Assembly (NCBI GenBank): GCA_963697895.1
Contig: OY969100.1
Span: 512,001 to 576,000 of the forward strand
Direction: 5' to 3'
DNA from: an uncultured Methanomicrobiales archaeon
Lineage (GTDB): Archaea; Halobacteriota; Methanomicrobia; Methanomicrobiales; Methanospirillaceae
Length of the DNA: 64,000 nt
Position 1 is the first letter of the stretch; each line of letters begins with the position of its first letter. The notes beneath the pieces were generated by a model. It had not been told where the DNA came from and did no database searches. It was given only the letters and a program-made list of their open reading frames with translations. Shown here piece by piece: positions 4,604 through 48,413 of the stretch. The position numbers and the translations under genes were made by a program.

Positions 4604-4708
4604 ATAACAATCATCAGGAACGGAACGTAATATAATTATCTTTAATACCTATAATAATAATACTTTAAGGTATAAATAATTGGTATATTGATACAAATGG
4701 GGTAACAA
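4604..4708. promoter_or_regulatory. Divergent AT-rich promoter region with near-palindrome ATACTTTAAGGTAT (4660-4673)
   Basis: Very AT-rich 105 bp between divergent starts; TATA-like boxes on both strands. Confidence 0.5.
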
Positions 4709-5200
4709 ATGCTCTCTAAAAGAATGTTTCAGCTGGGGTTTCGTGAAGCGCTCGCCGAGGAACTTCACCGGAAGGATATGACCGTCCGGGATCTCGCGAC
4801 GAGAACCGGGATTCCGCCTGCCACTTTGTACAAAATAACGGCGGGTGAACGGGATCCCCGGTTCTCTACGGTTAAACGTATTCTGGAAGTTCTTGAGCCA
4901 CAGGACAGGGGTTTCATCGCCGTGATCGCCGCAAAGTTCATCCTGGACAGGGTGGAGGGAAGGGAGATACCTGGAGACGGACACCAGTACCGGGTACGCG
5001 GGTACGCGGCAAACTCCATGGACGAATGTATTGTTGCAGCAGTTGCTGCGGAACGGGAGGGAGCGGTCGGCATCATATGTGCCCCGATTCTGGCCCCGCT
5101 CGTGGAGAAGATAGTCGATGTACCGGTCGCGATCATTAAACCGAGCACGGACACGGTGGAAGACGCAATGAAGACTCTGGCCCTGATTCTTCGTCGTTGA
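4709..5200 (+). CDS. XRE-family HTH transcriptional regulator with C-terminal putative ligand-binding domain
   Basis: MTVRDLATRTGIPPATLYKITAGERDPRFSTVKRI helix-turn-helix; C-terminal GAVGIICAPI...VDVPVAII alpha/beta domain. Confidence 0.8.
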   Translation: MLSKRMFQLGFREALAEELHRKDMTVRDLATRTGIPPATLYKITAGERDPRFSTVKRILEVLEPQDRGFIAVIAAKFILDRVEGREIPGDGHQYRVRGYAANSMDECIVAAVAAEREGAVGIICAPILAPLVEKIVDVPVAIIKPSTDTVEDAMKTLALILRR

Positions 5201-38436: not shown

Positions 38437-39676
38437 TTATGCGAACATCGCCCCGTATGTGCTGATCAGGCGCTGGCGATCAAAGTCCTGACCGATCTTT
38501 TCGATCGCGTCAAGGAAATCTTCGTGCGTGATCTGTGTATGCTCCCTTCGAATCGCAAACATACCTGCTTCCATACAGATTGCCCTGAGATCGGCCCCGT
38601 TTTTACCCTCGGTAAGCCTAACAATATCCTGTAGGTCGACACCGGGATCGAGGTTCATCCCGCGGGTATGCACGTTCATAATTGCGATCCTGCCTTCCTG
38701 GTCAGGGAGCGGGATCTCGATGATACGATCAAACCTGCCGGGGCGGAGGAGGGCACGGTCAAGGATGTCGATGCGGTTGGTCGCCCCGATGATCTTCACG
38801 TCACCCCGCCGCTCAAACCCATCCATGCCCGCCAGGAGCTGCATAAGCGTTCGTTGGACTTCCCGGTCCCCCGAGGTGGTCGATTCCGTTCGTGAAGCCC
38901 CGATTGCATCTATTTCGTCGATGAATATGATCGTCGGGGACTTCTTCCGAGCCAGTTCGAATATTTCACGTACAAGGCGGGCACCTTCACCGATATACTT
39001 CTGTACCAACTCCGATCCGACGACACGGAGGAAATATGCCTGAGTTTCATGGGCAACAGCCCGGGCGAGAAGTGTTTTTCCCGTTCCGGGTGGTCCATGA
39101 AGCAATACGCCTTTCGGAGGTTCGATACCGATCTGGAGAAAAAGATCGGGCCGTTTCAGCGGAAGCTCAACAGCCTCCCGGATTTCGTTAATCTCCTTAT
39201 CAAGCCCTCCGATATCCCCATATGTCTCATCAGGGGCCTCGACAACCTCCATTCCATAAACCTGTGCATCAAAACTCTCGGGAAGGATGTCAACAACGGC
39301 AAGTGACTGCTGATTGAGCGTACACCGGACTCCCGGTTTTAACTGTTCGGGTTCAATGCACACAGAACTTCGGACGAGGAACCGTGGTCCTGCGCTGCTC
39401 CGCACAATAACCCGGTTTCCATCGATAACATCGGTGATGGTACCGATCACCAGTGGCGGGCTCCTCAGACTGCTCTATTTCGCTCTTTAATTTCCGTACT
39501 TCGCGCTCGAACCGGATTTTTTGTGTCTCAACATAGCGTTTGTCTGATTCCGCCTGCCGCAGCTGCTCCCGGAGTTCCATGTTCCTGGTTTCCATATTCG
39601 TCACCCGTTCAAGCAGGTACCGGTACGCATCTTCCGGATTTTCCTGTTCCTGCGGCTGGCGAGCGCTCTCTGCCAT
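38437..39676 (-). CDS. pan: Proteasome-activating nucleotidase, paralog 2, +1 frameshift at ~39469
   Basis: Coiled coil ...KSEIEQ / LRSPPLVIG across the break; [13 protein letters not shown]; C-terminus GAMFA. Confidence 0.92.
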
Positions 39677-39732
39677 TGTGTTTTCAAATAGATATATAGG
39701 GAAAAATGACTATAAAGATGTTTGCGAGAACC

Positions 39733-40233
39733 ATGCAGTGCGAATTATGTGGTACCAAAGCAAAATGGCCCCTGAAGACCGTCAGGATTGAGGGAGCCGA
39801 ACTCGAGGTATGCGGTGAGTGTGCCAAATTTGGTACCGAGGTTCAGCAGCCGAGAAAGAGCGCCGTAAAGGCGGCACCAAGGCGGGCCGGTCCGGCGGTC
39901 CCACCGGGTGTCCCGGCGAAACACAAAAGAGATGTATTCGACTTCATGGTCGGGGAGATCGTCGATGATTATGGAGAACGAATTCGGAAAGCCCGGAATG
40001 AGAAGGGATGGTCCCAGAAAGATCTCGCCATGGAGATTAAGGAACGTGAACTGCTCATTAAGAAAGTGGAAAAAGGGGACCTGATTCCTGAGGATGAGCT
40101 CAGGATTAAACTGGAAAGGGTGCTCGGAATTCGCCTGATCGATGTTTCTGAAGAGGATGAAGCGAAGAGGAGCTCCGATAAACTTGTTCCCACGCTCGGG
40201 GACGTCATCTCGATTAAAAAAGTACAGCGGTAG
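39733..40233 (+). CDS. Archaeal multiprotein bridging factor aMBF1
   Basis: Zn ribbon CELCG...VCGECAKFG plus HTH SQKDLA; PTLGD tail; divergent from pan. Confidence 0.9.
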   Translation: MQCELCGTKAKWPLKTVRIEGAELEVCGECAKFGTEVQQPRKSAVKAAPRRAGPAVPPGVPAKHKRDVFDFMVGEIVDDYGERIRKARNEKGWSQKDLAMEIKERELLIKKVEKGDLIPEDELRIKLERVLGIRLIDVSEEDEAKRSSDKLVPTLGDVISIKKVQR

Positions 40234-40328
40234 CCTGGTATCCCGATACCGACAACCTTCTCGTTTCAGGGGCGAAGACCCCAGCATGAATCATCCTTCA
40301 CCCACCCGATCCCGGGATACATGCGTGA

Positions 40329-40337
40329 TTTTAAATA
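40329..40337 (+). promoter_or_regulatory. TATA box of the aromatic amino acid operon
   Basis: TTTTAAATA 32-33 nt upstream of ATG 40362, consistent with a leaderless transcript. Confidence 0.6.
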
Positions 40338-40361
40338 GCACCTGCACAAATGTGATACACA

Positions 40362-40406
40362 ATGCAGGGTGAATGTTTTTTCGCCGGTGAATGTTTTTAT
40401 CGGTAA
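40362..40406 (+). CDS. Putative Phe/Tyr leader peptide MQGECFFAGECFYR
   Basis: ATG CAG GGT GAA TGT TTT TTC GCC GGT GAA TGT TTT TAT CGG TAA; 3 Phe + 1 Tyr in 14 codons upstream of the aro/tyr/phe operon. Confidence 0.65.
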   Translation: MQGECFFAGECFYR

Positions 40407-40508
40407 AAGCGAAGCGAACGCTCCTTGCATCCGCCGGACGGTGTCCTCTCCTTTAGAAACCATCACGGGAGCACCGGCTGTCTATCGCTATTTTAACGCT
40501 TTTTGGTA

Positions 40509-40547
40509 TCTCCTGTATTGAGCTGGAGTCAGCTCTGATGCAGGAGG
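40509..40547 (+). promoter_or_regulatory. Hairpin sequestering the Shine-Dalgarno of the first aro gene
   Basis: CTCCTGTATT-GAGCTG-gagt-CAGCTC-t-GATGCAGGAG; 3' arm overlaps GGAGGAGG. Confidence 0.65.
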
Positions 40548-40556
40548 AGGATGTTT

Positions 40557-41348
40557 ATGAGAGGTAAGGAAATTCGTCTTGAACGGATCATGGATCGAAA
40601 CACACGAAAAACGATCATCGTGCCAATGGACCACGGGGTAACGAACGGACCCATTTCAGGGCTCATTGATCTGGAGCAGAGTATTAATCTCGTCGCCGAC
40701 GGCGGGGCGAATGCCGTACTCGGACATGTCGGTCTTGCACTGTATGGGCACCGACGGGGAGGACGAGATATCGGCCTGATCCTGCATCTCTCCGCAAGCA
40801 CGGCGATCGGTCCCGACCCGAATGACAAAGTGATCGTGAACACCGTCATGAACGCGATGAAGATGGGTGCGGATGCGGTATCGATGCATGTAAACATCGG
40901 TGCCGATTCTGAGGCAAGAATGCTCTCCGATCTCGGGAAAATTGCGGTCGAATGTATGGAATGGGGTATGCCACTCCTCGCGATGATGTACCCGCGTGGG
41001 AGAAAGATCCCGGATGAGCACGCGGTGGAGCATGTCCGGCTTGCGGCCCGTGTAGCAGCTGAACTGGGTGCGGATGTCGTAAAGACGGTCTATACGGGAG
41101 ATCCTGAGAGTTTCCGTGAAGTGACCCGGGGCTGTCCGGTCCCGGTGGTCGTCGCCGGAGGATCGAAGACGGACGATCGCTCTACTCTTGAGATGATAGA
41201 GGGTGCGATGGAAGCCGGTGCGGCGGGAATATCCATCGGGCGGAATGCATTCCAGCATGCGTCGCCAGACCGGTTCATCCGGGCTGCATCCGTGATCGTT
41301 CATCAGGGGAGGAGTGTTGAAGAAGCTATGGAAATGGTGAGGCGTTGA
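40557..41348 (+). CDS. 2-amino-3,7-dideoxy-D-threo-hept-6-ulosonate synthase (AroA', DhnA-type aldolase), paralog 1
   Basis: GKEIRLERI, VPMDHG, HLSAST, MYPRG, AELGADVVKT (Schiff-base Lys), GRNAFQ. Confidence 0.88.
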   Translation: MRGKEIRLERIMDRNTRKTIIVPMDHGVTNGPISGLIDLEQSINLVADGGANAVLGHVGLALYGHRRGGRDIGLILHLSASTAIGPDPNDKVIVNTVMNAMKMGADAVSMHVNIGADSEARMLSDLGKIAVECMEWGMPLLAMMYPRGRKIPDEHAVEHVRLAARVAAELGADVVKTVYTGDPESFREVTRGCPVPVVVAGGSKTDDRSTLEMIEGAMEAGAAGISIGRNAFQHASPDRFIRAASVIVHQGRSVEEAMEMVRR

Positions 41349-41349
41349 A

Positions 41350-42135
41350 ATGATTGGAAAAGAAATTCGCATTGAACGGATTATGGACAGGAATACCGGC
41401 AGGGCGGTCATCGTGCCGATGGATCACGGGTTTACCCTCGGACAGATCGAAGGGCTGCTCGATATGACGAAGATCATATCCGAAGTGAGCGAAGGAGGTG
41501 CGAACGCGATCGTGCTCCACAAAGGACTGGTAAAACGGGGACACCGGCGAAGCGGAAGGGATATCGGTCTCATTGTCCACCTATCAGCGAGCACTTCCCT
41601 GAATCCGGATCCCAACGATAAGGTGATCGTGTGCACAGTCGAGGAGGCAGTCCGGCTCGGGGCAGACGGGGTCTCGATCCACATCAATCTGGGTGCACCG
41701 AACGAGTCGAGAATGCTTGAATCGGCCGGACTCATTGTAAAGGACTGTAACCGCTGGGGTATGCCGCTCCTGATCATGATCTACCCGAGAGGAAAGGGGA
41801 TTGATCCCATATCCCCGCAATCGGTTGGCCATTGTGTCCGGGTAGCCGAAGAACTTGGAGCCGATCTGATAAAGACGAATTACACCGGAGATCCGGTTTC
41901 ATTCAGGAAGATTGTCAAGGCATGTTCGGTTCCGGTATTCATCGCCGGCGGGGAGAAGGCAGGGGACCTTGAGACCCTGAATGCGATACGCGATTCAGTT
42001 CGTGCAGGCGGGGCAGGAGTCTGCGTCGGGCGGAATGCCTTCCAGCGGGATGACCCGCGGGCATTCGTCCGTGCACTCTGCCGGGTGGTCCACCAGGAGG
42101 AGGACCCGTGCCTGGCCCTGGAGCGTTCGGCATGA
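41350..42135 (+). CDS. AroA'-like aldolase, paralog 2
   Basis: Same motifs: VPMDHG, IYPRG, EELGADLIKT, GRNAFQ. Confidence 0.85.
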   Translation: MIGKEIRIERIMDRNTGRAVIVPMDHGFTLGQIEGLLDMTKIISEVSEGGANAIVLHKGLVKRGHRRSGRDIGLIVHLSASTSLNPDPNDKVIVCTVEEAVRLGADGVSIHINLGAPNESRMLESAGLIVKDCNRWGMPLLIMIYPRGKGIDPISPQSVGHCVRVAEELGADLIKTNYTGDPVSFRKIVKACSVPVFIAGGEKAGDLETLNAIRDSVRAGGAGVCVGRNAFQRDDPRAFVRALCRVVHQEEDPCLALERSA

Positions 42136-43118
42136 AAGAGTTGTGGGTGGACGTTCGGCCCTGGCAGAAGGATCTGGCAACCACCGCGATCGAGAGCGGA
42201 GCCGATGCTCTGGTCGTCGAATGCGCCGGGCAGGTCAGGGAGCTGGGGAGGATGAAGACCATTGCTCCGGATGGAGACCTGGTACTGGAGAGAGAGGTTT
42301 TCGAGTGCACCCTTAAGGGAAAACAGGGAGAGAATGAAGCGCTGGCCCATGCTCGCGAAGGATTCGTGATCGTTCATGCCGACGACTGGACGGTTATCCC
42401 CCTGGAAAACCTCGTGAGCCGTTCAGATCGGATTATTGCGGCCGTTGGTACGGAAGAAGAAGCGGATCTGGCACTCCAGGTGCTGGAGCGGGGCGTATGC
42501 GGATTATGCCTCAGCACGGATGATCCTGCAGTGATACGCGCAGTAGCGGCGAAGATGCGGTCATCGGAGGAAAAGGTGAATCTGGTCCCGTTCACCATCA
42601 GCGCCATCCGGCAGGTGGGAATGGGTGACCGGGTCTGTGTCGATACCTGCTCCCTCCTCTCCGATGGGGAAGGGATGCTTATCGGCAACACCTCGTCAGG
42701 ATTTCTCCTCGTGCATGCAGAGACCCTGGAGAACCCATATGTTTCGCCCAGACCGTTCCGGGTGAATGCGGGCGCTGTCCATGCATATATCATGATGCCG
42801 GGAGGAAAGACCGCATACCTCTCCGATCTGAAGGTCGGTGACCCGGTCCTCGTTGCCGATCGGGAGGGCGAAGCCAGGGAAGTCACGGTCGGCCGGGTAA
42901 AGATAGAACGCCGCCCTATGCTCCTCGTGGAAGCGGTATCCGGAGAAACCACCATGAGTCTGATCCTCCAGAATGCGGAGACGATCCGGCTCGTCGGAGA
43001 AGATGGGAAGGCAAAATCGGTGGTGGATCTATCCGTAGGGGATCGCGTCCTCGGAGCACGCGAAGAGGGGGGAAGGCATTTCGGTGTGGCAATAAAGGAA
43101 CATATCAGGGAAAAGTGA
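42132..43118 (+). CDS. 3-dehydroquinate synthase II (AroB')
   Basis: DWTVIPLENL, GDRVCVDTCS, RPFRVNAGAVHAY, LQNAETIRL, GRHFG. Confidence 0.93.
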   Translation: MKELWVDVRPWQKDLATTAIESGADALVVECAGQVRELGRMKTIAPDGDLVLEREVFECTLKGKQGENEALAHAREGFVIVHADDWTVIPLENLVSRSDRIIAAVGTEEEADLALQVLERGVCGLCLSTDDPAVIRAVAAKMRSSEEKVNLVPFTISAIRQVGMGDRVCVDTCSLLSDGEGMLIGNTSSGFLLVHAETLENPYVSPRPFRVNAGAVHAYIMMPGGKTAYLSDLKVGDPVLVADREGEAREVTVGRVKIERRPMLLVEAVSGETTMSLILQNAETIRLVGEDGKAKSVVDLSVGDRVLGAREEGGRHFGVAIKEHIREK

Positions 43119-43122
43119 TATC

Positions 43123-43947
43123 GTGCAGGTCGGCATCATCGGTGGAACAGGAAAGATGGGGCAGCTCTTCCGGGACGTATTTGTACGTGCGGGGCATCCG
43201 ACGCTCTGTTCGGGAAGAACTACTGCGGTGACCGCACGCAGCATTGCGGAAATCTGTGATCTCGTCATGATAGCGGTTCCAATACATGCAACGGTGCAGG
43301 TGATCGATAAGATAGCCCCGCTCCTTCGCCCGTCACAGATCATCTGCGATCTCACGTCGCTGAAAGTGGAACCGGTCCGGGCGATGCTACGTTCACCGGC
43401 CCAGGTCGTGGGTCTCCATCCGATGTTCGGTCCCACCGTTCCCTCATTTCACGGGCAGACGATCATCGTTACTCCCGCCCGGTGCTCTGAAGAGGCCCTG
43501 GCGCCTCTGCTCACCCTTTTCCGGGGCGAAGGAGCCCGCATCACGATCACGTCCCCGGATACTCATGACCGGATGATGGCGATTGTTCAGGGACTGATGC
43601 ATTTTGTCACGCTCAGCATGGCGGAGACGATGAGACGCACCGGGGTTTCGCCCGAAGAAACGTTCCCATATATGAGTCCGGTGTACCGGATCGAGATGGG
43701 GCTGATCGGACGTCTCCTCGCACAGGATGCCCGGCTATATGGAGACATAATGCAGATGAACCCCTTTGTGGAAGATGTTCTCCATGCATTTGAGGAAGCG
43801 GTGCAGGATCTCAGGCATCTGGTTGAAGCCGGAGATAACGTCGGATTTACCCGGGTATTTAAGGAAAATTCGGTAAATTTCGGGGATTATTGCCCGCAGG
43901 CGATGGAGGAGACCGATATTCTGATCCGAACGGTGGTGAACGATTGA
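43123..43947 (+). CDS. tyrA: Prephenate dehydrogenase
   Basis: IIGGTGKMG Rossmann motif, DLTSLK, LHPMFGP, HDRMMA. Confidence 0.9.
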   Translation: MQVGIIGGTGKMGQLFRDVFVRAGHPTLCSGRTTAVTARSIAEICDLVMIAVPIHATVQVIDKIAPLLRPSQIICDLTSLKVEPVRAMLRSPAQVVGLHPMFGPTVPSFHGQTIIVTPARCSEEALAPLLTLFRGEGARITITSPDTHDRMMAIVQGLMHFVTLSMAETMRRTGVSPEETFPYMSPVYRIEMGLIGRLLAQDARLYGDIMQMNPFVEDVLHAFEEAVQDLRHLVEAGDNVGFTRVFKENSVNFGDYCPQAMEETDILIRTVVND

Positions 43948-44735
43948 CTGTGTACGCACTGGGCCCCGCCGGGACCTTCAGTCACGAGCTGGCACTGAGG
44001 CACTATGGCAATGAAATCAGTCTTCTTCCAACCATACATCAGATATTCGGCGTTGTTGAAAAGGGTGCAGGCATCGGGGTTATACCGATCGAGAACAGTG
44101 AAGCCGGTGGTGTGGGGGCCACCCTTGACGGGCTCCAGCGATTTAATGTCTGTATCATCGGAGAGGCATATATGGAGATCCATCACCACCTGGTAGGGTT
44201 TGAGCCACCAGCGCTCTTCGAGCGGATCTATGTCCATCCCCAGACCCATGAGCAATGCAGCGAGGTGCTCGGAAAGCTGGGGAAGGAAGTGGTTCATACG
44301 AGCAGCAACTCTGCAAGCGCCCAGGAAATGAAGAAAACCCCCCATTCGGGAGCCGTCGTCTCAAGGATGACCGCCGAACTCTACCACCTTCCGATACTCA
44401 TGCCGAATATCGAGAATAATCCAGACAATATCACCCGCTTTATCTCTATATCCGACAATCCCGGCTCTTTTACCGGAGCGACCAAATGCAGTATCCTCAT
44501 TGATCCTCAGGCGGACCGTGCAGGGCTCCTCCATACCATACTCGGTGTTTTTGCCCGCCGTGAGATTAATCTGACCCGTATCGAGTCCAGACCGTCCAAA
44601 AGAGGAATGGGGAGGTATGTATTCTTCATTGACCTGGCTTTCTCGGACGGCTGGAAGGATGCAATCGGGGAACTGATGGAGATGACCCGGGTGAAGCATC
44701 TCGGTTGTTATTCGCGGTTGGAGGAATCCGGGTGA
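43944..44735 (+). CDS. pheA: Prephenate dehydratase with ACT domain
   Basis: LGPAGTFSH, PIENS, NITRF, NLTRIESRP. Confidence 0.92.
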   Translation: MTVYALGPAGTFSHELALRHYGNEISLLPTIHQIFGVVEKGAGIGVIPIENSEAGGVGATLDGLQRFNVCIIGEAYMEIHHHLVGFEPPALFERIYVHPQTHEQCSEVLGKLGKEVVHTSSNSASAQEMKKTPHSGAVVSRMTAELYHLPILMPNIENNPDNITRFISISDNPGSFTGATKCSILIDPQADRAGLLHTILGVFARREINLTRIESRPSKRGMGRYVFFIDLAFSDGWKDAIGELMEMTRVKHLGCYSRLEESG

Positions 44736-46000
44736 AAATCACGATGCAACGGGCGGGACCTATCGACCTGACGGTTCCTGCCCCTCCCTCCAAGAGTTAT
44801 ACCCACCGGGCACTGATCATCTCGGCGCTTGCGGAGGGCTCTTCAGAAATTCGAAACCCACTCTCATCCGGTGATATCGACTGCACCCGAATGGCACTCC
44901 GATCTCTCGGCATCGTGGTACAGGAAAGAGACGGGGTGCTATCTGTCCGTGGATCAGACGGAAGACCCGACTGCCCGGATGGGCTCGTCCTCGATCTGGG
45001 TAACTCGGGCACCAGTTTCCGCCTTCTTGCATCGTGGGGACTACTCTGCGGAACACCCCTGATCCTGACCGGGAGTGCCCGGATGCAGGAACGGCCCGTC
45101 GGCCCGCTCGTCGCGGGGCTCAATGCCCTCGGCGGCAGGGTTACATACCTGAGAAATGCCGGTTACCCGCCTGTACGGATCGCGGGTGACCTGAAAGGAG
45201 GGGATGCTTGGATCGAAGGACAGATCAGCAGCCAGTTCATCTCATCCGTTCTCATCATCGCACCCTATGCGAAAGAGCCTGTACATCTTGATATCAGGGG
45301 TGAACCGGCCTCACGTTCGTACATAGATCTCACCTGTGATGTGATGGAGGCCTTCGGTGGCCGCGTCTTACGGGAAGGATATTCCCATTTCGAGATAAGC
45401 ACGACCGACCGGTACCGGGGGAGGACGTTCGTGGTCGAAGGCGATCTCTCCTCTGCCTCCTATTTCTTCGCGATGGCAGCCGTTACGCGGGGACGGGTCC
45501 GGGTGACCGGGGTCAATCCGGCATCTCTCCAGGGGGACCTCCGCTTTGTATCGGCACTGGAGTCAATGGGGTGTTCTATCCGGAATGGACGCGATATGAT
45601 TGAGGTATCCTGCGAAGGTGCATTGGAGGGGATCGATATCGATATGTCGGCGGCACCGGACACCGTTCAGACGCTCTGCGTTGTTGCGGCATGCGCACGG
45701 AGTGAAACCCGGATCTCCGGGGTATCGCATCTCCGGTATAAAGAGAGCGATCGACTCGCTGAAACAGCTTCCCTATTGAACAGTCTCGGAGGTTCCATGA
45801 AGGTCGATGAGGGGGAGATATTCATCCGGCCGTCACCGCTCCATGGCGGTACAATCGATCCCCGGAATGATCACCGGACCGCGATGAGCTTTGCCGTTCT
45901 CGGGCTAGCTGTTGGCGGCATCACGATCCTCAACGCAGAATGCGCAGGAAAATCATTTCCGGGTTTCTGGGATCTGCTTCGGGGGGGTGGTCTGGCATGA
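44732..46000 (+). CDS. aroA: EPSP synthase
   Basis: PPSKSYTHR, LGNSGTSFR, ISSQFIS, RYKESDR, DHRTAMS. Confidence 0.95.
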   Translation: MKITMQRAGPIDLTVPAPPSKSYTHRALIISALAEGSSEIRNPLSSGDIDCTRMALRSLGIVVQERDGVLSVRGSDGRPDCPDGLVLDLGNSGTSFRLLASWGLLCGTPLILTGSARMQERPVGPLVAGLNALGGRVTYLRNAGYPPVRIAGDLKGGDAWIEGQISSQFISSVLIIAPYAKEPVHLDIRGEPASRSYIDLTCDVMEAFGGRVLREGYSHFEISTTDRYRGRTFVVEGDLSSASYFFAMAAVTRGRVRVTGVNPASLQGDLRFVSALESMGCSIRNGRDMIEVSCEGALEGIDIDMSAAPDTVQTLCVVAACARSETRISGVSHLRYKESDRLAETASLLNSLGGSMKVDEGEIFIRPSPLHGGTIDPRNDHRTAMSFAVLGLAVGGITILNAECAGKSFPGFWDLLRGGGLA

Positions 46001-47382
46001 GGATAGTTCTTACGGGATTTCGGGGTACGGGAAAGACCCTGGTAGGAAAACGCCTCTCCCATCTCCTCGACATCCCTTTCATCGACACTGACAACCGGAT
46101 CGAAGAGGCAGCAGGGATGACCATTCACGAGATGATGATGACGCACGGCGAGGTATATTTCCGCCGGCGGGAGCGGGAGGTCATATCATCGCTTGAGCAG
46201 GGAGATGCAGTGATCAGCACCGGCGGGGGGGCGATCCTCGATCCGGAGAACGTTGAGGATCTCCGGCAGGGAAGCATCGTGTTCCTCCTCGAGGCAGACG
46301 AAAAGACGATCGAGGAACGGATCGAGAACACCACGAGGCCGCCGCTGACGCAACTCGCATTGCGGGATGAAATTCATGCGCTGCTGGCCGCCCGTGAGCC
46401 GCTCTACATCGCATCCGCAGATATCTGCATAAACACGGTGGGGAAACAGGTAAACGAGGTATGCCTCGGCATCCAGCGCATTCTTTCAGAAGGGATCGCG
46501 GACCAGGGTTCCCGGGACCGGGTCGCCCAGTTTATCAGGAGAACGGGTATCACCTCGCCGGAAATTCCGGAGACGATCGATCGGCTTGTTGGCGACTCTT
46601 TCGACCCTTACACCCGGTTCTATGGGATCGCTGGGAATCCGTGCACACATAGCAGAAGCCCGCCACTCTTCAACGCCCTATTCGACCTGTACCACATGAA
46701 TGGATTTTACACCAGATTCCAGTGGCCGGATATCGATGAGATCCTTTCCCATGCCCGGATCCTCGGGATGAAAGGGCTCAGTGTAACAATCCCGTTCAAA
46801 GAACAGATTCTGCCCCTGATGGATCGTATTGACGGACACGCAGAAAAGATCGGTGCGGTGAACACGGTAGTGTTCTGCGGGAGAAGAACGCATGGCTTCA
46901 ATACCGACTGGCTGGGCATCCGCGGACCCCTCGGGGGGCACAGGAATGAAAAGGCAGCGGTACTGGGCGCCGGCGGGGCCGCGGCAGCGGCTGTATATGC
47001 CCTTCTCGACCTGGGGATGGACGTCACGATCCTCAACCGGACCGTGGAGAGGGGAAGGCTCCTTGCCGAACGGTTCGGGTGCCATTCAGCTCCCCTGGAA
47101 GCATTCGCCTCGCTCTCCCCGGAGGTGGTGATCAATGCCACACCGGTTGGGATGGCACCCGATCGCCGGAGTCCGGTACCGGGAGAACAACTGAAACCTG
47201 GGATGACCATATTCGATCTGGTATACACCCCATCGGAGACTCCGCTTCTCCGTGCTGCAGCGGCTGCCGGATGCACGACCATCCCCGGGACCGAGATGTT
47301 TATCCGGCAGGCGTGCGCACAGTTCAGACACTTCACGGGTATCGTAGTGCCCGAAGAGCAGGTCAGGAGGATTCTGGTATGA
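45997..47382 (+). CDS. Fused shikimate kinase (bacterial P-loop type) / shikimate dehydrogenase
   Basis: N-terminal GFRGTGKT, DTD, FRRRE, STGGG, RPPL; C-terminal HSRSP, SVTIPFK, GAVNT, NTDW, GAGGAA, NATPVG. Confidence 0.92.
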   Translation: MRIVLTGFRGTGKTLVGKRLSHLLDIPFIDTDNRIEEAAGMTIHEMMMTHGEVYFRRREREVISSLEQGDAVISTGGGAILDPENVEDLRQGSIVFLLEADEKTIEERIENTTRPPLTQLALRDEIHALLAAREPLYIASADICINTVGKQVNEVCLGIQRILSEGIADQGSRDRVAQFIRRTGITSPEIPETIDRLVGDSFDPYTRFYGIAGNPCTHSRSPPLFNALFDLYHMNGFYTRFQWPDIDEILSHARILGMKGLSVTIPFKEQILPLMDRIDGHAEKIGAVNTVVFCGRRTHGFNTDWLGIRGPLGGHRNEKAAVLGAGGAAAAAVYALLDLGMDVTILNRTVERGRLLAERFGCHSAPLEAFASLSPEVVINATPVGMAPDRRSPVPGEQLKPGMTIFDLVYTPSETPLLRAAAAAGCTTIPGTEMFIRQACAQFRHFTGIVVPEEQVRRILV

Positions 47383-48413
47383 ACACATTCGGTCGGAATT
47401 TCCGGTGTACTTCCTTCGGCGAGAGCCATGGTCCTGCGATCGGCGTTATCGTGGACGGGTGTCCTGCCGGGCTTTCCCTTTCTCCCGAAGCTATCCAGCC
47501 CTTCCTCGACCGGAGAAGGCCGGGCACCAGTGACCTTGTTTCTCAGCGCAGGGAACCCGATCAGGTTTCTATCGCGTCCGGATTATTCGGGGGAAGGACC
47601 ACCGGCATGCCGATCATGATGATGATCAAGAACCGTGACATCGAGTCAGGTGCGTACGATACCATCAGGGATCTCTACCGGCCCGGACACGCAGACTTTA
47701 CCTATGACCAGAAGTATGGAATTCGCGATCACCGTGGCGGAGGGAGGAGTTCCGGACGGGAAACGGCCGCCCGTGTCGCTGCAGGGGCAATTGCCCGGAT
47801 TTTTCTTGAACGATATAACATTGTCATCCATGGCAGAATACAAGAAGTACATGGTAAAACCGACGATTCGGAAATAGCGGAAGAGATCAGGTCGGCGCAA
47901 ATGCGGGGGGATTCGGTCGGCGGGATCGTAGAGGTCATCGCAACCGGATGTCCCGTTGGCCTCGGAGATCCGGTCTTTGGAAAACTCGACGCACAGATAG
48001 CCTCCGCGATGATGGGGATCGGTGCGGTGAAGGGGGTCGAGATCGGAGAGGGATTTCATGCTGCCGCTCTGTATGGGAGCGAGAACAACGATCAGATAAC
48101 AGGCGCAGGTTTTCTCTCCAATCATGCAGGTGGTATACTGGGGGGGATCAGTAATGGTGAGGAGATTGTCGTCCGGATTTCTGTCAAACCCACCCCGTCG
48201 ATCAGTATACCGCAGAAAACGATCGACAGGAGCGGGAAAGAGCGGGTTATCTCCGTTCAGGGCAGGCATGACCCCTGTATCGTCCCACGCATCGTCCCGG
48301 TGGCAGAGGCCATGCTTGCACTTGTCATTATTGATTGCCTGCTCGAAAATGCCAAGTACCAGGTATTCGGAGATCTAACCTGCGGGATTCAGGGGCCTGA
48401 AGAGGACGATTAA
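47379..48413 (+). CDS. aroC: Chorismate synthase
   Basis: MNTFG..FGESHG, RPGHAD, GGGRSSGRET, GRHDPC. Confidence 0.96.
   Translation: MNTFGRNFRCTSFGESHGPAIGVIVDGCPAGLSLSPEAIQPFLDRRRPGTSDLVSQRREPDQVSIASGLFGGRTTGMPIMMMIKNRDIESGAYDTIRDLYRPGHADFTYDQKYGIRDHRGGGRSSGRETAARVAAGAIARIFLERYNIVIHGRIQEVHGKTDDSEIAEEIRSAQMRGDSVGGIVEVIATGCPVGLGDPVFGKLDAQIASAMMGIGAVKGVEIGEGFHAAALYGSENNDQITGAGFLSNHAGGILGGISNGEEIVVRISVKPTPSISIPQKTIDRSGKERVISVQGRHDPCIVPRIVPVAEAMLALVIIDCLLENAKYQVFGDLTCGIQGPEEDD

Follow-up and report, generated by a model that had tools for sequence, protein, structure and literature searches.

The sensing of amino acids by ribosomes on leader peptides is a textbook mechanism of bacteria, and prfB (release factor 2) is a known case of a programmed +1 frameshift. 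In archaea, TrpY is a protein regulator of aromatic amino acid genes. Another protein regulator of such genes is TK0271/Tar of Thermococcus, an activator (PMC6737238). The described systems closest to the locus considered below are the leader peptide of pheL-pheA in E. coli (PMC3082878), aroR-aroF of C. glutamicum (PMC11802643), and the polycysteine leaderless short-ORF attenuators of mycobacteria (Canestrari et al., bioRxiv 10.1101/834739). A +1 shift at the end of pheL was judged incidental by the authors of that study (PMC3082878). A full-text literature search returned no description of a leader-peptide attenuator in archaea. The leader of the archaeal aromatic operon described here is, to judge from its sequence and those of its relatives, likely to be a ribosome-mediated leader-peptide attenuator for Phe and Tyr that acts mainly on translation.

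We analysed a window of 64,000 nucleotides, by which we mean the whole stretch of DNA, in which an aromatic amino acid operon occupies positions 40557–48413 of the + strand; all parts of the leader given below are on this strand. Gene annotation gives the order aroA' (two copies), aroB', tyrA, pheA, aroA, aroK-aroE, and aroC, i.e., two ADH synthases, DHQ synthase II, tyrA, pheA, aroA, an aroK-aroE fusion, and aroC; trp genes are absent. A sequence-only reading of the same DNA had described an eight-gene operon that includes pheA and tyrA, in agreement with this annotation. The gene upstream of the leader is aMBF1, and ATG 40557 is probably the true start of aroA' (MRGKEIRLE, matching relatives). 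The tandem ADH synthase paralogues (40557–41348 and 41350–42135) are about 57% identical and stand next to each other in nearly all 41 genomes of the order. The ORF at 45940–47382 fuses shikimate kinase (residues ~20–185) to shikimate dehydrogenase (residues ~225–478), and the aroC ORF as listed (47079–48413) shares about 300 nt with it, which probably reflects an aroC start placed too early.

A TATA box, TTTTAAATA, lies at 40329–40337, and the ATG at 40362 opens a short leaderless frame, ORF-A (40362–40406), of 14 codons. It encodes MQGECFFAGECFYR, reads ATG CAG GGT GAA TGT TTT TTC GCC GGT GAA TGT TTT TAT CGG TAA, and ends at the TAA at 40404–40406. A 13-nt unit, GGTGAATGTTTTT, is present twice within it, at 40368–40380 and 40386–40398, with a period of 18. 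The resulting 34-nt core (40368–40401) consists of two 18-nt units, each with GGTGA-ATG-YTTT followed by a specifier codon. The strings and coordinates of the TATA box, the ORF at ATG 40362, the duplicated unit, and the complementary pairs listed earlier for the leader were all verified in the sequence. Among the pattern matches listed, an AT-rich 8-mer ends 22–29 nt (mode 24) 5' of the ATG in 102 of 108 unique relatives, a spacing that fits a leaderless mRNA; in the window, the TATA spacing would place the 5' end of the transcript at ATG 40362 or 1 nt before it.

The main set of relatives comprises the regions upstream of aroA' in 41 genomes of the order (42 loci, 28 genera, 6 families); these were located by way of the aroA' orthologue, independently of the motif. 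A second set of at least 80 further loci came from a pattern scan on the core with one genome per species; it is biased for the core itself and unbiased for the ATG, the stops, and the tail. Counts over 105, 108, or 113 loci draw on the pattern matches listed.

BLAST with the leader DNA showed that only about 40 nt, the short ORF with its repeat, are conserved, at 81–97% identity in 25 of the 41 genomes. By tolerant match, the 34-nt core was found in 33 of the 42 upstream regions. An in-frame ATG stands 6 or 24 nt upstream of the core in 32 of these 33 loci, the 33rd being cut by the 330-nt window taken upstream, and in 111 of 113 loci among the pattern matches listed; the 24-nt form has one additional 18-nt unit. 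The specifier codon of frame A is always Phe in unit 1 (40380–40382) and Tyr in unit 2 (40398–40400), with synonymous variation. Among the matches listed, frame A closes no later than three codons past its Tyr codon in 91 of 108 unique cases, against a background of 15.6% at other places in the same frame. The repeat and the short ORF are far beyond chance, and the expectation that a short ORF with Phe/Tyr codons would recur across Methanomicrobiales was borne out by the comparison of relatives, in which the ATG, the Phe/Tyr codons, and the stop are all kept.

ORF-A is overlapped by a much more extended frame. In each of the 42 upstream regions, we compared the segments between stops in all frames and took the one richest in aromatic residues; in every core-bearing locus, this segment was the +1 frame relative to ORF-A. 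This frame, ORF-B (40369–40521; (GTG)NVFSPVNVFI...AVYRYFNAFWYLLY, stop TGA), comprises about 50 codons in the window (VNVFSPVNVFIGKSEANAPCIRRTVSSPLETITGAPAVYRYFNAFWYLLY) and is open in relatives: across the same spans of the 33 core-bearing loci, frame B contains 0 stops and the other two frames 90 and 94. Its length in these main-set loci is 39–63 codons, and since frame B stays open despite this variation, the indels of the middle region come in threes. Of the 80 further loci listed, 78 have an ORF-B with an aromatic tail, 37–90 codons long. In L125 and L146, ORF-B is short (26–28 codons) and without an aromatic tail; these two may be decayed copies or assembly errors.

In total, a leader ORF with an aromatic tail is present in 39 of 42 loci and 38 of 41 genomes of the order, and only G001, G019, and G037 have none. 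The pattern matches listed belong to Methanomicrobiales genera or MAGs, including Methanoculleus, Methanoregula, Methanospirillum, Methanolinea, and Methanocalculus. A complete leader was also seen on four contigs (L086, L108, L155, L159) in MAGs labelled Spirochaetia, Bacillota, Bacteroidales, and Rokubacteria, most likely through mis-binning of Methanomicrobiales contigs. In 14 other families of the same phylum, 20 loci showed no leader of this kind. Two loci of family f16 (L075 and L076, genomes G050 and G070) have a GT-rich upstream region and long W/F/G/L/C-rich frames 5' of aroA', which may be low-complexity sequence or another kind of leader.

A long palindrome of the form RTGYTA-N(2-16)-TARCAY (e.g., GTGCTAGTATG...CATACTAGCAC) was seen upstream of aroA' at 6 of the 20 loci outside the order and at 6 of the 42 inside it; shuffled sequences gave 10 in 2100. 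Outside the order (L070, L072, L073, L077, L078, L080) it appears as GTGCTA...TAGCAC 40–58 nt 5' of aroA', and inside the order it lies in the upstream regions of G001, G002, G008, G010, G017a, and G019, so that two of the three order genomes that have no leader ORF possess it. The palindrome is probably the operator of an aromatic regulator. In the window, CGTGAT...TAGCAC, a weak look-alike, flanks the TATA box and overlaps the promoter (region 40329–40346).

The end of ORF-B is densely filled with aromatic codons. In the window, 7 of the 12 codons of the tail (40483–40518) specify F, Y, or W, and the segment YRYFNAFWY is encoded by TAT CGC TAT TTT AAC GCT TTT TGG TAT. In the 105 unique ORFs among the matches listed, the last 16 codons contain on average 8.1 F/Y/W codons (background 7.4% for long ORFs of the genome and 5.2% for the ORF-B middle), and 66 of these 105 peptides end with F, Y, or W. 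The share of U-ending codons is 76% for the aromatic codons (UUU 69%, UAU 85%) and 26–32% for the other two-fold NNY codons of the same ORFs; genome-wide usage is 35% for UUU and 51% for UAU. Together with the single tRNA-Phe(GAA) gene of the genome, this bias indicates a preference for wobble-read, presumably slower codons. The sequence-only reading had proposed a ribosome-read Phe/Tyr sensor with a leaderless start, and this general idea holds up well among the relatives, but its 14-codon ORF is not the main leader, the codon run being in ORF-B; ribosomes may gain access to ORF-B by way of ORF-A.

The product of ORF-B might instead be a small protein, rich in aromatic residues, that is co-expressed with the operon, has a function of its own, and senses nothing; an N-terminal VxVFSP motif and a GAAAxYRYF-like segment that look conserved could be cited for this. 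However, the middle of the frame varies freely in sequence and length (37–90 codons), the tail is conserved in composition and not in sequence, the codons are biased toward wobble-read ones, and ORF-B has no match in Pfam, so that we consider a protein of this kind extremely improbable. The G-A-A-A-x-Y-R-Y-F-like segment was noticed by eye just 5' of the tail (~40468–40494) in many ORF-B peptides, with Ala codons that vary synonymously, which suggests selection on the nascent peptide itself and perhaps an arrest-peptide role.

The last codons and the stop of ORF-B enter a hairpin at 40510–40546 that extends to the Shine–Dalgarno sequence of aroA' (AGGAGGAGG, 40542–40550); the 3' end of 16S rRNA, GGATCACCTCCT, was found in the genome. 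The hairpin has a folding energy of −25 kcal/mol (z = −4.23), and 0 of 200 shuffles were as good. Among the matches listed, the stretch from the ORF-B stop to aroA' has a mean z of −2.1, with values below 0 in 103 of 105 relatives and below −2 in 57 of 105, and the hairpin sequences differ widely. In these listed relatives, the median distance from the first nucleotide of the 5' arm to the end of the ORF-B stop downstream of it is 7 nt (interquartile range −11 to +1), and the 3' arm stops a median of 6 nt short of the start codon, which places it over the Shine–Dalgarno sequence. A ribosome covers 12 nt 3' of its A-site codon; with this figure assumed, an aromatic codon at which an A-site stall would cover the 5' arm is present in 96 of 105 loci among the matches listed. 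It should be noted that pairing of the Shine–Dalgarno sequence in the MFE fold was uninformative as a measure (87/107 versus 904/1070 with the upstream part shuffled), so the case for the hairpin is made by stability and position.

In the proposed attenuator, two overlapping frames would be read across the 34-nt core, and ORF-B would carry ribosomes through the whole leader into Tyr, Phe, and Trp codons, mostly the wobble-read UAU and UUU, with its last codons and stop within the 5' arm of the hairpin and the 3' arm reaching the Shine–Dalgarno sequence of aroA'. When charged aromatic tRNAs are scarce, the ribosome would stall in the tail and hold the 5' arm, the Shine–Dalgarno sequence would be free, and the first gene of the operon would be translated. 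When they are plentiful, the ribosome would terminate and leave, the hairpin would close, and translation would be low. The conserved open frame, the codon bias, and the hairpin with its geometry are observed features of these leaders; the transcription start, translation of both frames, and the sign of the control are inferred.

Several points weigh against such an attenuator. A terminating ribosome would open the hairpin too, so that the sign of control would depend on dwell time. In core-bearing loci, ORF-B has no 5' AUG, and its sole start candidate is a GUG or AUG 8 or 26 nt from the 5' end without a Shine–Dalgarno sequence. The conservation of the core exceeds the needs of a mere leader peptide, the GAAAxYRYF-like segment seen by eye hints at something beyond codon counting, and trpE of the same genome has no leader ORF of this kind. 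A look-up of RNA runs for 40200–41400 listed none. Separately, a genome-wide scan for other cognate-rich short ORFs gave 75 candidates, none of them convincing; one candidate within the window (4645–4728) was rejected as an AT-rich promoter before an ABC ATPase gene.

The sequence-only reading had proposed that ribosome stalling switches termination or translation of the operon. In a rival model of this kind, ORF-A alone would be the sensor, toggling terminator and antiterminator stems with U-tracts. The ATG, the Phe/Tyr codons, and the stop of ORF-A are indeed conserved, and the pairs GCCGGTG/CACCGGC, AAAAGCG/CGCTTTT, AGCGA/TCGCT, and GCTCC/GGAGC exist in the window. The long-range stems, however, are not conserved beyond shuffled controls, with a mean longest run in relatives of 5.45 versus 5.73 and 5.89 versus 6.10 for shuffled targets. 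Conserved, mutually exclusive antiterminator and terminator stems were found neither in 104 relatives among the matches listed nor by RNAalifold on 21 leaders, and RNAalifold on the full leaders yields the unit-1 hairpin only. The U-tracts (40489–40506) that had been taken for a terminator are Tyr/Phe/Trp codons of ORF-B, a frame open in every core-bearing relative, and a T-run of at least 5 occurs in only 41 of 105 tails among the matches listed. Regulation by ORF-A alone is therefore very improbable. The structure that is conserved at the output is the hairpin over the Shine–Dalgarno sequence of aroA', which argues for translational control rather than for termination at U-tracts.

Transcription could also be affected in another way, with leader translation shielding the nascent U-rich RNA from oligo-U or factor-dependent termination and the Shine–Dalgarno hairpin being secondary; the archaeal termination factor is aCPSF1/FttA, and Rho-type polarity offers a parallel. 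The strong preference for UUU and UAU does make the tail U-rich, and the runs in the 41 tails are of 5–7 T, including the one at 40500–40504 in the window. On the other hand, 64 of the 105 tails among the matches listed contain no T-run of at least 5, and the conserved structure adjoins the Shine–Dalgarno sequence with no U-run after it. We regard shielding as unlikely to be the principal output, and it could coexist with the attenuator.

The pattern of substitutions in the core bears on whether both frames are read. Sites that serve as the second codon position of frame A and the first of frame B hardly vary, the remaining two classes show equal variation, and every invariant third position of one frame is the first or second position of the other. 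The core variants seen include 8 of the 17 possible changes that are synonymous in frame A, 8 of 24 that are synonymous in frame B, and 10 of 60 that are nonsynonymous in both (Fisher p = 0.02). At the frame-A stop, which is realised in five ways (TAA, TAG, or TGA at +2; TAA or TAG at +3), the frame-B amino acids vary and the T that makes the stop is kept. We read the enrichment of changes synonymous in either frame, together with the invariant positions, as dual coding of the core, with frame A also under selection. Mini-ORFs in frame C (GGTGA-ATG) were rejected, their start being lost in unit 2 and position 25 not being T in 10 of 32 sequences. Counting frame-B stops upstream of RTG in the 24-nt variants was discarded as a measure, the set being contaminated by chance ATGs.

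The 5' part of the leader may also fold. A candidate pairing, P1, joins AUGCAGGG (40362–40369) to CCUUGCAU (40423–40430), and a P1 stem closing over the 5' domain is plausible. The 5' domain (40362–40432) folds with z = −2.84 in the window and with a mean of −1.3 in 68 relatives; for the whole leader, z is a modest −1.68 against shuffles. In 88 of 105 MFE folds among the matches listed, the first 8 nt are likewise bound to the corresponding site, which is shifted by 18 nt in the 24-nt variants. The z value of the P1 duplex against shuffled probes is only −1.0, and a probe swap gave no clear signal of P1 covariation, with the leader's own probe being better in only 39 of 65 cases, since probes rich in G and U pair indiscriminately. 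Applied to 68 5' domains and to 21 full leaders, RNAalifold returned only the near-invariant unit-1 hairpin. An Rfam search of 39500–41500 gave no family match, its three chance-level hits (E 2–8) being far below the gathering scores.

These data also concern the possibility that the 5' core is chiefly a protein or ligand element and itself the real sensor, either as a DNA operator of two direct repeats immediately downstream of the start site or as a P1-closed RNA domain, with the frames merely tolerated. Extreme conservation (82–97% identity over about 40 nt in six families) and the stability and constant place of P1 would suit such an element. However, the invariant third positions are explained by the other frame, synonymous changes are overrepresented among the variants, the frame-A stop survives changes among TAA, TAG, and TGA, and P1 shows no clear covariation. 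Moreover, matches to the core motif elsewhere in the same genome are not above control (5 versus 5). We therefore consider a binding element improbable as the sensor.

Ribosomes would need a way into ORF-B, because an early-stop frame A overlaps a long open +1 frame that lacks an evident start of its own. The route we favour is a +1 slip from the leaderless ORF-A, which may take place at YUU_U when a hungry Phe or Tyr codon is in the A site. At 64 sites of 32 unique sequences, UUU or CUU, with U as the next nucleotide, always stands ahead of the specifier, and a codon ending in A or G never does; T and C are the sole bases at core positions 10 and 28, and positions 11–13 and 29–31 are invariant T in the same 32 sequences. 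Genome-wide, 43% of Val codons end in A or G, and the genome has a tRNA-Leu(GAG). In both units, GGUGA is found 4 nt upstream of the slip codon, and unit 1 of the 24-nt variants has CRUGAGGG in a different register. Where lineages lack the two units, that ATG already shares its frame with the tail: the two-unit core is incomplete in G006, G010, G013, G023, G030, and G040, and the leaderless ATG of these genomes leads directly into the aromatic tail.

The alternative route is a separate start of ORF-B at GUG 40369, and GUG or AUG does occupy core positions 2–4 in 32 of 32 unique sequences. Nevertheless, conservation of the GUG is just as high in unit 2, which requires no start, the candidate lies 8 or 26 nt from the 5' end with no Shine–Dalgarno sequence, and a ribosome stalled in ORF-A would be expected to block it, which would give the wrong sign of control.

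With entry by the favoured +1 slip, the 34-nt core could be a two-channel frameshift gate, i.e., an amino-acid sensor built on regulated +1 frameshifting; we put this forward tentatively, as a serious possibility that falls somewhat short of being probable. Ribosomes would start at the leaderless AUG in frame A and arrive with YUU in the P site and the Phe codon (unit 1) or the Tyr codon (unit 2) in the A site. If the A-site codon were hungry, the P-site tRNA would slip +1 onto UUU and the ribosome would enter ORF-B, to stall in the F/Y/W tail at the Shine–Dalgarno hairpin, and the operon would be on. If Phe and Tyr were both plentiful, frame A would be kept and translation would terminate within three codons past unit 2, after which P1 could close over the 5' AUG. 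Specifier channels for Phe and Tyr match the content of the operon, which has pheA and tyrA and no trp genes.

The leader spans a whole methanogen order and bears on translation feedback on archaeal gene expression. Some of the leader-bearing records are named strains rather than MAGs, which makes the predictions directly testable. A gate that frameshifts at hungry codons would, if true, be a new kind of metabolic sensor. The data also show that conserved "U-tract terminators" of archaeal leaders can be codon runs.

Compared with the described systems, the leader is closest in anatomy to the mycobacterial attenuators, which likewise have a leaderless first ORF of the operon with a run of cognate codons and the anatomy of translational attenuation. 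The features of LL-sORF and ermC-type control found here are the ribosome-binding site of aroA' at a stable, conserved hairpin and stall codons opposite the arm that contains it. The mycobacterial systems differ in being bacterial and Cys-sensing and in having a single short frame, whereas the archaeal leader is predicted to sense Phe, Tyr, and Trp, and has an ORF of 37–90 codons with the codon run at its very end and an overlapping second frame at its 5' end.

With leaders of the trpL/pheL type, the locus shares an upstream short ORF enriched in codons for the end products. In pheL and aroR, Phe or Phe/Tyr codons likewise stand in a leader ORF before aromatic genes and stalling raises expression; both act via terminator and antiterminator hairpins and an intrinsic terminator, whereas conserved equivalents of these were not found here. 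The locus resembles prfB in that its 0 frame is short and stops early, its +1 frame is long, the P-site codon is YUU with U next to it, and an SD-like GGUGA stands a few nt upstream; unlike in prfB, decoding in the A site would be slow at a Phe or Tyr sense codon and not at a stop, and the 24-nt variants do not keep the SD-like element in a single register. The regulators TK0271/Tar and TrpY place the same pathway under amino-acid control but are DNA-binding proteins, whereas the element described here is predicted to be read by ribosomes. Taken together, these comparisons lead us to regard the order-wide two-frame leader as real and as what appears to be a known bacterial principle in a new domain.
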